Positions 3,614 to 9,832 are shown, counted from the first letter of the stretch. The stretch: 64,000 nt of DNA from an uncultured Verrucomicrobiota bacterium (GCA_903953565.1 CAJBKE010000059.1:15923-79922), one strand, 5' to 3'. Numbers and translations are program-made. The notes: generated from the sequence alone by a model not told the origin.

Positions 3614-4996
3614 ATGGCTCTGCTCATCAAGAACGCTGATATTGTCAACTCGGACACCCGCTACACCGCCGACATCCTCTGCGAAGGCGAGCGCATCACG
3701 CGCATCGACAAAGACATCACGCCGCCAAGCGGAGCGGAAGTCATCGACGCAACCGGGAAACACGTCTTCCCCGGATTCATCGATCCACACACTCACATCT
3801 ACCTGCCTTTCATGGGCACGTATTCGAAGGACAACTACGAGACGGGTACCAAAGCGGCCTTGGTCGGCGGCACGACCACGATTTTCGAAATGGTCTGCCC
3901 CTCGCGCGACATGTCACCAGCCGACGGCTTCGCCACGTGGCAGGCGCAGGCCGAAGGCAAAGCATGCTGCGATTACACCTTCCACATGGGCGTCACGCGC
4001 TTCGACGCGGACTCGGCGAAACAATTGCGCGACATCGTCAAACAAGGCGTCGGCAGTTTCAAAATCTTCCTCGCCTACAAAGGCGCGTTCGGAGTCGACG
4101 ACACCGAATTGTGGGAAACCCTCAAGTTGGCCAAGGAACTCGGCGTCATCGTCACCGCCCACTGCGAAAACGAAACGCTTGTCGCCCAACTGCAGAAGGA
4201 ACTTCTCGCCAGCGGACACACCGGACCGGAGGCGCACCACGACAGCCGTCCGCCCCGCGTGGAGGCCGAGGGCGTGCATCACCTCATGTCCTTCGCTGCC
4301 ATGACCGGCACGCACACTTACATCGTCCATCTGAGCTGCCTTGAAGCCTTGCGCGAAGCCATCGCCGCCCGCGAGCGCGGGGTGAACGTCTTCGTCGAAA
4401 CACTCATTCAATATCTCGTCCTCGACAAAACCTACGCCGAGAAACCGGATTTCGAGGGCGCCAAGTTCGTCATGTCCCCCCCCCTGCGCGACGTTTCGAA
4501 CCAAAACATCCTCTGGGATGCCTTGGCCAGCGGCTTGGTCAACACGGTGGGCACCGACCACGCACCCTTCGACTTCAAAGATCAGAAACCGATGGGTAAG
4601 GATGACTTCACCAAGATTCCCAACGGCATCCCGTCCATCGAGGACCGCATCAATCTTCTCTACACCCACGGTGTGAAAAAGGGACGCCTCACCCTCCAGC
4701 AACTCGTCGCCGTGGCCAGCACGAACGCCGCGAAAATCTTCGACCTCTACCCGCGCAAAGGCGTTATTCAGCCCGGCGCCGATGCCGATCTGGTTGTCTA
4801 CGACCCGTCCTACCGGGGCAAACTCTCCGTCAAAAACCAGACGCAGAACGTCGACTACAACGCCTTCGAAGGCTGGGAGATCGAAGGCCGCCCATCCATC
4901 GTCACGGTCCGCGGCGCGGTTGCGGTTCGCGACGGCAAGTTTGTCGGCAAGGTCGGACGGGGACGCTTCCTCAAGCGTCAGCCCTCGCATTTCTAG
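3614..4996 (+). CDS. hydA: dihydropyrimidinase / D-hydantoinase (cyclic amidohydrolase)
   Basis: The ATG at 3614 (MALLIKNADIV), 5 nt after the mmsA stop, is preferred over the Arg/Pro-rich upstream extension from 3479. Metal motif GFIDPHTH and carbamylated-Lys context SFKIFLAYKG. Confidence 0.9.
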   Translation: MALLIKNADIVNSDTRYTADILCEGERITRIDKDITPPSGAEVIDATGKHVFPGFIDPHTHIYLPFMGTYSKDNYETGTKAALVGGTTTIFEMVCPSRDMSPADGFATWQAQAEGKACCDYTFHMGVTRFDADSAKQLRDIVKQGVGSFKIFLAYKGAFGVDDTELWETLKLAKELGVIVTAHCENETLVAQLQKELLASGHTGPEAHHDSRPPRVEAEGVHHLMSFAAMTGTHTYIVHLSCLEALREAIAARERGVNVFVETLIQYLVLDKTYAEKPDFEGAKFVMSPPLRDVSNQNILWDALASGLVNTVGTDHAPFDFKDQKPMGKDDFTKIPNGIPSIEDRINLLYTHGVKKGRLTLQQLVAVASTNAAKIFDLYPRKGVIQPGADADLVVYDPSYRGKLSVKNQTQNVDYNAFEGWEIEGRPSIVTVRGAVAVRDGKFVGKVGRGRFLKRQPSHF

Positions 4997-6784: not shown

Positions 6785-8121
6785 AGGAACCCGCACTCCC
6801 CCCTTGCGATCACCAGCCGCGACCGTATATCGGACCATCGGCCGACGAAGTGCTTGCCTTGCGCAAACAGTTCATGAACCCCGGCATTTTCCTCTACTAC
6901 AAAAAGCCGCTCATGGTCGTGGAGGGCAGGATGCAATACGTGTGGGACGAGAAAGGGAAACGCTACCTCGACGGACTCGGCGGCATCGTCACAGTCAGCG
7001 TCGGACATTGCCACCCGCACGTCGTCTCGGCCGGCAACAGGCAGAGCGAACAGTATCAGCATTCCACCACGATCTATCTTCACCCGAATGTGGCCGAATA
7101 CGCCGCGAAGCTGGCCTCGAAAATGCCGGGCAACCTCAAAGCCTGCTACTTCGTAAATTCCGGCTCCGAAGCCAACGATCTGGCCCTGATGATGGCGCGC
7201 GCCTACACCGGCAACTACGACATCATCGCCCTGCGCAACGCCTACCACGGCGGCAACCAATCGACCATGGGCGTCACCGCGCACAGCACGTGGAAATACA
7301 ACGTGCCGCACGGCTTCGGCTTCCACCATGCGCTCGCGCCCTATCCCTACCGCGGAACCTTCGGATACGACGATCCCGACGCGGGCGCGAAATACGCCAA
7401 TGACGTCAAAGAACTCATCGAATACGCCACGCCGGGCAAGATTGCCGGATTCATCGCGGAGTCCATCCAAGGCGTCGGCGGATTCGTTGAATTCCCGCCG
7501 GGATACCTCGAGCACGTTTACGGATACGTCCGCGCCGCCGGCGGGGTGTGCATCGCGGACGAAGTTCAGACCGGCTTCGGACGAACCGGCACGCATTTCT
7601 GGGGCTTCGAAACGCAGGGTGTCATCCCCGACATCGTCACAATGGCCAAAGGCATCGGCAACGGTTGCCCCCTGGCCGCCGTCGTCACCACCCACGAAAT
7701 CGCGCAATCCCTCCTCGGCAAAGTCCACTTCAACACCTTCGGCGGCAACCCCGTGGTCAGTGCCATGGGCAAAGCCGTGCTCGAGGTTATCGAGCGGGAA
7801 AACCTGCAGGAAAATTCCCGCAAGATGGGCAAATACATTCTCGCCGGACTGAACAAGCTGAAGGAAAAGCACAAAGTGATCGGTGATGTCCGCGGCAAAG
7901 GCCTCATGCTCGGCATCGAAATGGTCAAGGACCGCAAAACCAAAGAGCCCGCCACTGCGGAATGCGCTCAGGTGCTCGAGACGGCGCGCGACCTCGGACT
8001 CCTCCTCGGCAAAGGCGGGTTGCGCGGACAAGTCATCCGCTTCGCCCCGCCCATGTGCATCACCCAACCCGACGCAGATTTCCTGCTCGAGGTCCTCGAC
8101 GAATCCTTCAGCCGGTTGTGA
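6781..8121 (+). CDS. class III aminotransferase, AGXT2 / beta-alanine (beta-aminoisobutyrate)-pyruvate transaminase-like
   Basis: 446 aa. Motifs [11 protein letters not shown] and the PLP-lysine context [11 protein letters not shown]. The N-terminus resembles alanine-glyoxylate aminotransferase 2. Confidence 0.85.
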
Positions 8122-8253
8122 ATCCGAGTCGGGCACGCGAGCCGCGTGTCTCTCCCCCCGCTAGGGACGGACTATGATATCGGCCGCGAAGACCTCGCCG
8201 ACGCGCGGGGCCCGCTGCGGCGGGGCCCGCGGACCCGCCCCACCTCCCCACGT

Positions 8254-8282
8254 TTGCCATCATCGAGACATCGCGGTAGCAT
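8254..8282 (+). promoter_or_regulatory. candidate sigma70-type promoter (TTGCCA, 17-nt spacer, TAGCAT)
   Basis: The hexamers were read directly. The -10 box ends 8 nt before the ATG at 8291, which would give a leaderless or nearly leaderless mRNA. No experimental support. Confidence 0.3.
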
Positions 8283-8290
8283 GACGTGTT

Positions 8291-8431
8291 ATGAAAATGT
8301 TCAACATCCTCCTCGGCTTGCTGATCCTTGCCATCACGCCGGCCCAAGCCCAGTGCAAAGACTGCGGTTGCAAGGACAAGTGCACGCCGTCCTGCAAGTG
8401 CACGCACGGCGAGAAACCGAAAGCCCGGTGA
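8291..8431 (+). CDS. secreted cysteine-rich micro-protein (46 aa; metallothionein-like / envelope Cys-rich peptide)
   Basis: Below the ORF-track cutoff. Sequence is MKMFNILLGLLILAITPAQA followed by QCKDCGCKDKCTPSCKCTHGEKPKAR: a Sec signal peptide with an AQA cleavage site, then 7 Cys in 26 residues. 39 of 46 third codon positions are G/C in this frame, against roughly half in the overlapping frame-1 ORF. Confidence 0.6.
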   Translation: MKMFNILLGLLILAITPAQAQCKDCGCKDKCTPSCKCTHGEKPKAR

Positions 8432-8658
8432 ACTCCCTCGACCCGCGGGCCAAGCGCTTCCGGGCAGCCGACAAATCCCTCCAGCAGGCCCGGCTGGCCC
8501 TCCAAGGCGCGCAAATCGCTTTGGCCGATCTGCCACGATCCAACCACTCGCCGGTCACCGCCGCCCTCGACTCCATCGACCACGCCGTCTCCAATATCGC
8601 GGCAGCGGCAGCCCGGATTGACGAAGCACGGCTGGATGACAGCGAGGAACTGGGCTGA
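8428..8658 (+). CDS. small alpha-helical hypothetical protein (76 aa), translationally coupled to the Cys-rich peptide
   Basis: The GTG at 8428 overlaps the upstream TGA (GTGA). The high-GC3 coding signal moves into frame 1 exactly here. Sequence VNSLDPRAKRFRAADKSLQQARLALQGAQIAL... has no signal peptide. Confidence 0.5.
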   Translation: MNSLDPRAKRFRAADKSLQQARLALQGAQIALADLPRSNHSPVTAALDSIDHAVSNIAAAAARIDEARLDDSEELG

Positions 8659-8710
8659 CCAGCGCTGCATTGCCTTTTCTCCGTAAGCGGCGACACTTTC
8701 CCGCGTTTCC

Positions 8711-9832
8711 ATGCTTTTCCTCACCCCGCGATACCGTAAGGAGGCCAAACTCGTTCTCCGGGCTGCGCGCAAGCTCCTGCGTTACCGCCGCGACATCCTT
8801 CCCGACAAGCAACTCATCGGTCTGCGCGAAGCCATCACGCGGCTCGAGGTGGCAATGCGCAAAAATTCGCGCGAAGACATCACGGCTTCGACCGAGAAGC
8901 TGCACGGACTTTTCGACCAGGCTGCCCCCCGCCCACCCCTCGCCGGATTGCGGGAAAACACCGAGGTCATCCTCGTTGCCTTGGTTATCGCACTGGGCGT
9001 GCGCGCTTATTTTTTGCAACCGTTCAAAATTCCCACCGGATCCATGCAACCCACGCTCTACGGCGTCACGGGAACACCGACTGTCGATCCCCTTCCCTCC
9101 TGGCCGGTGCGCGTCGCGGACTTTGTTCTGCGCGGACGCACTTGGATCGACGTTACCGCCGATGCGGACGACTCGGTCATCGGATTGCGCGAGGTCACCC
9201 GGTTCCACTTTTTCACTTCGACCGAAATCATCACGCGCACCCGGACCTACCGCGTGCCCGCGCCGCTCAACGTGGTGCGGACTGACTTCAAGATTTACCC
9301 CGGCCGCCCCCTGACGGCCGGGCAACCCATCGTCCGGGGCCACGCCGACAGCGGCGACCAGCTTTTCGTCGATAAGATCTCCTACAATTTTGTCCGGCCG
9401 GCACCCGGCGATGTCTTCGTCTTCCGCACGACCGGCATCCGCCGCATCGAGGCCGGCATCGCGCCCGGCATGGGATCGCAATACTACATCAAGCGCCTCG
9501 CCGCCACCGGAGGCCAGACCCTTCGCATCGATCCGCCGAAGCTTTACGTCGACGGACAGGTCCCCGAACTGCCGTCGCTCCTGCGCGTCATGTCCTGCCA
9601 AGACGGCTACGCGGGATATTCCAACAGCAGCGCAGGCGGAGGTTCGTTTCCCATCCTCGGATCGCCGGAGACCGAATACACTGTGCCCCGGGCCTCCTAC
9701 TTCGCGCTCGGCGACAACAGCTACCACAGCAGCGACAGCCGCTACTTCGGGCCCGTGCCCGAGCAAAATGTGGTCGGACGGGGCCTGGTCGTCTATTGGC
9801 CGTTTGTCGGACGCTGGGGCCTGATCAACTGA
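8711..9832 (+). CDS. lepB: signal peptidase I (S26)
   Basis: TM anchor VILVALVIALGV, Ser-nucleophile box GSMQPTL, Lys box YYIKRLAATGG, and GDNSYHSSDSRYFGPV. Confidence 0.92.
   Translation: MLFLTPRYRKEAKLVLRAARKLLRYRRDILPDKQLIGLREAITRLEVAMRKNSREDITASTEKLHGLFDQAAPRPPLAGLRENTEVILVALVIALGVRAYFLQPFKIPTGSMQPTLYGVTGTPTVDPLPSWPVRVADFVLRGRTWIDVTADADDSVIGLREVTRFHFFTSTEIITRTRTYRVPAPLNVVRTDFKIYPGRPLTAGQPIVRGHADSGDQLFVDKISYNFVRPAPGDVFVFRTTGIRRIEAGIAPGMGSQYYIKRLAATGGQTLRIDPPKLYVDGQVPELPSLLRVMSCQDGYAGYSNSSAGGGSFPILGSPETEYTVPRASYFALGDNSYHSSDSRYFGPVPEQNVVGRGLVVYWPFVGRWGLIN

Follow-up and report, generated by a model that had tools for sequence, protein, structure and literature searches.

A conserved micro-gene pair of freshwater Chthoniobacterales encodes a predicted exported hexacysteine peptide and a small helical protein

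Among metallothioneins, the short Cu-thioneins of about 25 residues are the nearest comparator for very small Cys-rich peptides, and to our knowledge the known metallothioneins are cytosolic. Translational coupling through overlapping ATGA or GTGA codons is known in bacterial operons, and proteins of fewer than 50 residues are systematically under-annotated. CutF is an exported leader protein with a Cys motif that controls the next cistron, and some such leaders overlap that cistron; CutF-like proteins are recognised by a length of less than 150 aa, an N-terminal signal peptide and a Cys/His motif (PMC9973294). SecM, VemP, MifM, ApdA, ApdP and ApcA are monitoring substrates of the Sec/YidC machinery, encoded upstream of protein-export genes (PMC7897499). 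Here we analysed a 64,000-nt stretch of DNA from an uncultured Verrucomicrobiota bacterium (GCA_903953565.1, CAJBKE010000059.1:15923-79922), hereafter the window, in which a short gene for a Lys- and Cys-rich peptide overlaps a second short gene, ORF76, just upstream of lepB, the gene for signal peptidase I. An earlier reading of the window, made from the sequence alone, had proposed this pair, and we investigated whether the two genes are real, how they may be expressed and how they compare with the systems above.

Comparison of LepB-anchored loci, with LepB identities of up to 90%, placed the window in freshwater Chthoniobacterales. We collected 29 Chthoniobacterales loci in which both open reading frames (ORFs) are complete, comprising 12 genome loci, the window included, and 17 metagenome loci found by a DNA-level scan for the Cys motif; one further locus (L005) was left outside the genome count, as it holds the 3' part of ORF76 only. 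The pair was present in the same frames in 29/29 loci. All 17 metagenome loci, although found by the peptide motif, carried both genes, and in all 12 genome loci the pair lay directly upstream of lepB. The ratio of nonsynonymous to synonymous polymorphism (pN/pS) was 0.54 in the peptide frame, with 0.30 in the Cys core and 0.70 in the signal, which stays hydrophobic, compared with 0.91-1.08 in the shifted sense frames of the same region and 0.74 in the lowest antisense frame. For ORF76 the ratio was 0.38, compared with 1.40-1.60 in the shifted sense frames and 0.48 in the lowest antisense frame, and every antisense frame was interrupted by stop codons in several loci. Followed upstream into the peptide-coding stretch, the ORF76 frame contained a stop in 5/29 loci and showed no selection there. 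These results demonstrate that both micro-genes are real and that purifying selection acts on precisely these frames. The sequence-only reading had argued for two separate genes instead of one frame-1 protein, and the interrupting stops and the absence of frame-1 selection bear this out; the Cys pattern on which it had staked its peptide gene is likewise kept, with a scaffold nearly unchanged across relatives.

Codon composition pointed the same way in the window itself. The G+C fraction at codon positions 1, 2 and 3 was 0.46/0.46/0.85 in the peptide frame, where 39 of the 46 codons end in G or C, and 0.75/0.49/0.79 in ORF76, while long genes of the window show about 0.62/0.45/0.78. An ORF of 46 codons is common in DNA of 62% G+C (45 ORFs of 30 aa or more overlap the 4.5-kb stretch around it), and the case for the genes therefore rests on the comparative data. 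The coordinates of the two genes (Table 1), their frames, the GTGA overlap, the count of G/C-ending codons and the 52-nt gap between the end of ORF76 and the lepB start codon all agreed with the earlier description. That description had also called the pair hidden, which is true of a six-frame view; gene callers, on the other hand, already carry both genes as hypothetical proteins.

Table 1. Positions of the gene pair, its signals and its downstream neighbour in the window
Feature	Position	Strand	Remarks
Sigma-70-like promoter TTGCCA-17-TAGCAT	8254-8282	+	-10 ends 8 nt before the peptide ATG
Peptide ORF	8291-8431 (ATG 8291 to TGA 8429-8431)	+	Frame 2, 46 codons
Signal peptide MKMFNILLGLLILAITPAQA	8291-8350	+	Predicted signal peptidase I cut after AQA, rule-based
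Mature 26-residue peptide QCKDCGCKDKCTPSCKCTHGEKPKAR with stop codon	8351-8431	+	Scaffold C-x2-C-x-C-x3-C-x3-C-x-C
GTGA junction	8428-8431	+	ORF76 start GTG overlaps peptide stop TGA
ORF76	8428-8658 (GTG 8428 to TGA 8656-8658)	+	Frame 1, 76 codons
lepB promoter-like element, ATTGCCTTTT + 16-nt spacer + GACACT	8669-8697	+	TTGCCT 8670-8675, GACACT 8692-8697; 13 nt before the lepB ATG
lepB, signal peptidase I	8711-9832	+	Peptidase_S26 and TIGR02227; usual downstream neighbour of the pair

We then described the peptide family from 53 unique pre-peptides of 44-50 aa, using a rule-based check for the signal peptide. Position -1 was Ala in 53/53 and position -3 was Ala, Val or Thr in 53/53. The signal was 20 residues long in 45/53, with an uncharged h-region of at least 11 residues (mean 15.8) and a mean K/R count of 1.06 in the n-region, and no lipobox occurred among the 53 pre-peptides. 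By charge, h-region and the -3/-1 residues, the first product conforms to the rules for a Sec signal peptide cleaved by signal peptidase I (SPase I), so the Sec signal peptide recognised from the sequence alone is upheld at the level of these rules. The predicted mature part is 24-28 aa long and usually begins with Gln. It follows the scaffold C-K-D-C-G-C-K-x-K-C-[ST]-x-x-C-x-C almost without change, and the six Cys together with K23, D24, G26, K28 and K30 are invariant or nearly so; the count of seven Cys given earlier was one too many. Cys accounts for 23.5% and Lys for 21.8% of mature residues, Val, Leu and Tyr for at most 0.2% each (Tyr 0.1%), Phe and Trp are absent, hydrophobic residues are almost nil, and the net charge ranges from 0 to +4. 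Variation is greatest in the C-terminal tail, which also contains indels (for example EKPKAQ, KPKAP and QKKADG). AlphaFold modelled the pre-peptide as a signal helix followed by coil, with a predicted local distance difference test score (pLDDT) of 62 overall and of about 60 for the mature coil.

A profile search of 5.8 billion proteins returned 43 peptide clusters, all of them close relatives. A scan of the window for further small secreted Cys-rich ORFs returned none, under a filter so strict that the peptide itself did not pass it. Searches against Pfam, NCBIfam, PDB, PHROGs and PADLOC gave sub-threshold noise only, such as a TraW_N signal-peptide similarity, and the PDB sequence profile of the family matched nothing beyond signal peptides. 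Natural variants that have lost one Cys were also observed (L006, L091, L092 (P0154) and P0151); the change of C5 to Tyr defines a lineage on 14 contigs, and the change of C2 to Arg occurs in one cluster. In one 1389-nt JGI/NCBI contig, a 79-aa protein (P0006) fuses the pre-peptide, up to about its last Cys, in frame to the C-terminal half of ORF76. This is consistent with a deletion of about 137 nt and may represent either a true variant or an error of assembly.

The partner protein, ORF76, was predicted to form a two-helix hairpin (helices 6-33 and 42-75, pLDDT 88), in which inspection of the sequence shows the first helix to be basic and the second acidic. Its N-terminus, MNSLDPRAKRxRAADRSLQQAR, is nearly invariant. 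This confident model agrees with the earlier description of the second product as helical. Searched exhaustively with HMMER, 1.84 billion representatives yielded only 10 ORF76 clusters. Pfam, NCBIfam, PHROGs and PADLOC yielded only sub-threshold coiled-coil noise, the PDB sequence profile only designed coiled coils, a Foldseek search of the model against PDB a best E-value of 0.9 to generic helical hairpins, and tblastn against a plasmid collection no match. ORF76 is a cytoplasmic protein of an orphan family. In the LepB proteins of the clade, the transmembrane segment is preceded by about 85 residues that are predicted to form a helical cytoplasmic extension (8711-8970 in the window, codons 1 to about 87); a relationship of ORF76 to this N-terminal extension was considered and rejected, with an hhalign probability of 0.1%.

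The distribution of the two genes is asymmetric. The peptide was never seen without ORF76 (29/29), while ORF76 occurs without the peptide in six other contexts: beside tig, after uvrA, after an epimerase gene, after a Zincin_1 gene and in two more. The ORF76 tree intermingles stand-alone copies with peptide-linked ones. All six stand-alone lineages start ORF76 with ATG, and their products begin exactly with M-N-S-L-D-P. In the uvrA context (L103 and L104, positions 2501-2504), the start of the ORF76 homologue overlaps the uvrA stop as ATGA, and this copy would thus be coupled to a large housekeeping gene and not to the peptide. In three stand-alone contexts, ORF76 is preceded by a short ORF of the same relative frame whose end falls on or beside the ATGA: L082 (about 366-409), L109 (about 2460-2500) and L083 (about 3934-4000), with MARILPSAPRFILP, MAKRRIPAVAVDR and an ORF of 22 codons. 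They may have arisen by chance, or they may be what is left of a coupling ORF or its forerunners. Comparison of the peptide gene with the regions upstream of stand-alone ORF76 gave chance 8-12-mers only and no trace of a de novo origin, and tblastn of the window for genes that flank the alternative contexts (tig, GT2/Zincin/SnoaL, gnd, OprB) found nothing.

To describe how the pair may be expressed, we scanned 2.1 kb around it for promoters and found a single sigma-70-like site (shuffle mean 0.2), the same promoter-like box that had been pointed out from the sequence alone. A -35/-10 pair with the -10 box ending 6-8 nt before the peptide start was present in 11/12 genome loci. The same geometry was seen in the metagenome loci inspected, and it holds despite diverged flanks and even with a GTG start. 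Because the -10 box ends so close to the start codon, the position suggests that the transcript of the pair is leaderless or begins no more than about 2 nt before that codon. At the other end of the peptide gene, an NTGA overlap with ORF76 was kept in 29/29 loci, with GTG in 25, ATG in three and TTG in one. The junction singled out earlier is thus conserved, although in part necessarily so, since the Met-Asn start of ORF76 (NTG AAY) always creates a TGA in the +1 frame. No Shine-Dalgarno-like motif preceded the ORF76 start in the upstream sequences read. The junction showed no conserved RNA structure (consensus -2 kcal/mol, z-score -0.27), and Rfam searched at permissive thresholds over 7900-9000 returned nothing. 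The ORF76 start codon was GTG or TTG in 26/29 peptide-linked loci, against ATG in 6/6 stand-alone lineages (Fisher p = 5e-5, uncorrected for phylogeny). A weak start that occurs only in the linked state fits translation of ORF76 that depends on re-initiation there.

Set against described systems, the peptide shares several features with metallothioneins. Like them it is very small, carries about 24% Cys in CxC and CxxC motifs with Lys and Ser beside the Cys, has almost no aromatic or hydrophobic residues and has no predicted autonomous fold. It differs in its predicted cleavable Sec signal, its near-invariant residues between the Cys and its lack of metal-related neighbours. The resemblance to metallothioneins drawn by the sequence-only reading consequently stands for composition and for the CxC and CxxC motifs, but not at the level of family models, none of which matched. 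With the CutF-like (DUF2946-type) leaders the peptide shares a length below 150 aa, a Sec signal, a Cys motif and a position immediately upstream of, and overlapping, the next cistron. Here, by contrast, no stem-loop shields the ORF76 start, no metal-homeostasis gene lies downstream, and a pre-peptide of 44-50 aa is too short for co-translational sensing. No family member has a PP motif in its C-terminal 15 residues, and the DUF2946 model did not match the peptide; assignment as a CutF-like sensor was rejected on the PP motif, DUF2946, the stem-loop and length. The Sec/YidC monitoring substrates are similar in being small signal-bearing ORFs upstream of a protein-export machinery gene, but the peptide is much shorter, has no conserved arrest motif, and is neither obligatorily linked to lepB nor immediately next to it. 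A kinship with the Cys-rich envelope proteins of Chlamydiae (OmcA/CrpA), which had also been suggested, did not survive: these are small, exported, Cys-rich and from hosts of the same Planctomycetes-Verrucomicrobia-Chlamydiae superphylum, yet the peptide is several times shorter, has another Cys pattern, lacks a lipobox and matches no Pfam model of chlamydial Cys-rich outer-membrane proteins. Overlap-coupled cistrons, finally, show the same 4-nt stop/start overlap, absence of a Shine-Dalgarno motif in the sequences read and weak downstream start, with the difference that the overlap here is partly dictated by the Met-Asn start of ORF76. In the literature we found no description of the peptide, nor of an exported bacterial metallothionein.

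We propose that the pair is an autonomous two-gene module. Its sigma-70-type promoter would place the transcription start on the peptide start codon, or no more than about 2 nt from it, and so produce a leaderless bicistronic mRNA. The first cistron would yield the pre-peptide, which would be exported through Sec after translation, because, judged from the length of the ribosomal exit tunnel, it is too short for export while still on the ribosome. SPase I would then cut after AxA and release the Lys-rich hexacysteine peptide into the periplasm or the medium. Ribosomes that end at the peptide TGA would re-initiate on the overlapping GTG and translate ORF76 without a ribosome-binding site of its own. 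Outside the cytoplasm, the mature peptide would act as a metallothionein-like set of thiolate ligands for soft metals such as Cu(I), Zn or Cd. The proximity of lepB would come from common ancestry of the locus, perhaps joined by read-through that co-expresses a substrate and the enzyme that processes it, and not from a regulatory circuit. The data establish the two genes, their frames and conservation, the limits of both families and the contexts in which they occur; we infer that initiation is leaderless, that the peptide is exported and cut at the stated site, that ribosomes re-initiate and that metal is bound. We give the whole explanation, a coupled leaderless bicistron with a metal-binding exported peptide, a probability of about 0.5. 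The architecture by itself, that is the leaderless start, export and cleavage, re-initiation and lepB proximity as shared ancestry, appears highly probable to us, while metal binding by the mature peptide, suggested by its composition, is a tentative assignment at somewhat less than even odds.

The metal-binding function is preferred for the composition of the peptide, the Lys and Ser residues beside the Cys, the absence of a hydrophobic core or predicted fold, and the tolerance of an odd Cys count; the persistence of a lineage with five Cys is easier to accommodate in a thiolate cluster than in a fold with three disulfides. Several observations weigh against our explanation. No Pfam metallothionein model matched the peptide, even with E-values of up to 10, and none of the contexts contains a metal-homeostasis gene beside the pair. 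Exported peptides with an even number of Cys are normally oxidised to disulfides in the Gram-negative periplasm, and the strict K, D, G and K between the Cys are more typical of a specific fold or partner. ORF76 is kept without the peptide in six lineages, which leaves the coupling unexplained, and conservation of the junction, being partly forced, is weaker evidence of coupling than it looks.

A serious rival retains the same gene architecture and makes the product a mini-peptide locked by three disulfides, which would serve as an extracellular signal, an antimicrobial or a surface-binding cationic peptide. Six Cys, an even count, in a Sec-exported peptide are what it predicts, a defined fold or contact with a receptor would explain the near-invariance of K, D, G and K between them, and the charge of 0 to +4 agrees with a cationic peptide. 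Size and Cys density are comparable to those of heat-stable enterotoxin or conotoxins. Nevertheless we consider it somewhat unlikely, as AlphaFold did not fold the mature part with confidence, hydrophobic residues are almost nil, the five-Cys lineage persists, and the contexts seen contain no linked receptor, transporter or immunity gene. That the peptide ORF serves chiefly the translation of ORF76, loading ribosomes onto a leaderless mRNA and setting or conditionally modulating ORF76 synthesis through termination and re-initiation, with a product that is secondary or is a CutF-like extracytoplasmic sensor of metal or redox state, seems decidedly improbable. The asymmetric distribution of the two genes, the ORF76 start that is weak only when peptide-linked, the same-frame short ORFs ending in ATGA before three stand-alone copies and the CutF precedent (PMC9973294) all speak for such a device. 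A pure regulatory upstream ORF, however, would not keep a signal peptide and a near-invariant 17-residue Cys scaffold, and from the tunnel length the Cys region of a 44-50-aa product could not reach the periplasm while ribosome-bound. The tail varies more than any other part, contains indels and shows neither a PP nor a RAPP-like motif; no conserved stem-loop and no DUF2946 match were found, and the short ORFs can be explained by chance in GC-rich DNA. A further possibility, that the peptide gene arose from an upstream ORF of an older small gene whose translation it now controls by leaderless initiation followed by termination and re-initiation, and that it encodes a metallothionein-like, Sec-exported thiolate buffer or scavenger of metal of about 26 residues, we regard as improbable.

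Two further alternatives concern the neighbouring gene and the reading frame. The peptide could be a leader for lepB that monitors secretion or signal-peptidase activity in the manner of SecM, VemP or MifM, which would account for a signal-bearing small ORF upstream of an export gene in 27/29 loci. We judge this very improbable, since ORF76 and a separate lepB box intervene and the box is also found where the pair is absent, two lineages have a different gene downstream, and the peptide has no conserved C-terminal arrest motif and is too short to span the exit tunnel and the translocon; lepB is not mentioned in a survey of arrest peptides (PMC7897499). The locus could also encode a single frame-1 protein running from GTG 8146 or ATG 8281 to 8658, such as the 125-aa P0044, for the frame is open from 8146 in the window and databases hold calls of 83-125 aa. 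The stops in 5/29 loci eliminate this version for practical purposes. Over the peptide region the frame has a pN/pS of about 0.9-1.1 and a third-position G+C of 0.46, and the stand-alone homologues begin at the internal start and not upstream of it. The comparative data thus contradict the single frame from ATG 8281, which the sequence-only reading had itself named as the outcome that would overturn its proposal.

The relation of the pair to lepB was assessed from gene order and from the sequences before lepB. The lepB product matched Peptidase_S26 (E = 6e-32, 111 bits, curated cut-off 22.9) and TIGR02227 (E = 3e-30, 105 bits, curated cut-off 47). The pair precedes lepB in 27/29 loci; in the other two (L095 and L102) it lies directly upstream of a 6-phosphogluconate dehydrogenase-like gene. 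Synteny with lepB, which the sequence-only reading had put forward for testing, held among these loci with the two exceptions. The gene upstream of the pair varies among an aminotransferase, XdhC and an outer-membrane protein. In the LepB tree the pair occurs in three subclades and is missing from a nested clade (L007-L012), from L024 and from basal members. A box before lepB was found clade-wide, consisting of ATTGCCTTTT, a 16- or 17-nt spacer and (G/C)A(G/C/A)ACT (GAGACT or GACACT), 12-19 nt before the ATG. It was present in all close-clade loci (L001-L026) that include the sequence upstream of lepB, except L023, with the variant GTTGCCTTTT in L001-L003, and it was also present in 12/13 loci lacking the pair. 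No consensus RNA pairs were found in the box, and we therefore take it to act at the DNA level and read it as the promoter of lepB itself. It appears to be a non-canonical promoter or operator that the clade has conserved for signal peptidase I, lies outside the pair and marks its downstream boundary. A functional tie between the pair and lepB is not supported, given that the lepB box also occurs in relatives without the pair, that the two exceptional loci have another gene downstream and that ORF76 stands alone elsewhere; the link is positional only.

The pair thus represents two undescribed, lineage-restricted families, a predicted exported Lys/Cys-rich peptide of 24-28 residues and an orphan helical hairpin, and comparison among loci settles the two-gene model as the correct one for a widespread freshwater Chthoniobacterales group. 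Extracytoplasmic metal binding would make the mature peptide an unusual counterpart of metallothioneins that is exported, whereas a disulfide-locked structure would make it a new mini-peptide scaffold of bacteria. A metal peptide derived from an upstream ORF would constitute a new metal-handling class and would document the birth of a secreted micro-protein in a 5' leader. The module also offers a clean natural test case for leaderless initiation and overlap-coupled re-initiation in Verrucomicrobia, and the mature peptide is short enough for direct synthesis and testing whichever chemistry holds.

Two minor observations concern the annotation and the surroundings of the pair. Public annotation of the locus is inconsistent: gene callers often start the 76-aa gene too far upstream and so read through the peptide gene in the wrong frame, which produces conflicting entries of 83-125 aa (P0044, P0007, P0010, P0098 and others); a few of these are misnamed 'prefoldin subunit 5' or 'lactoylglutathione lyase-related'. 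In the window, the upstream neighbour is a class-III aminotransferase gene that ends at 8121. Between its stop codon and the peptide promoter, positions 8200-8250 are very G+C-rich with GGGGCCCGC repeated, and this stretch may be a terminator-like or structural element.

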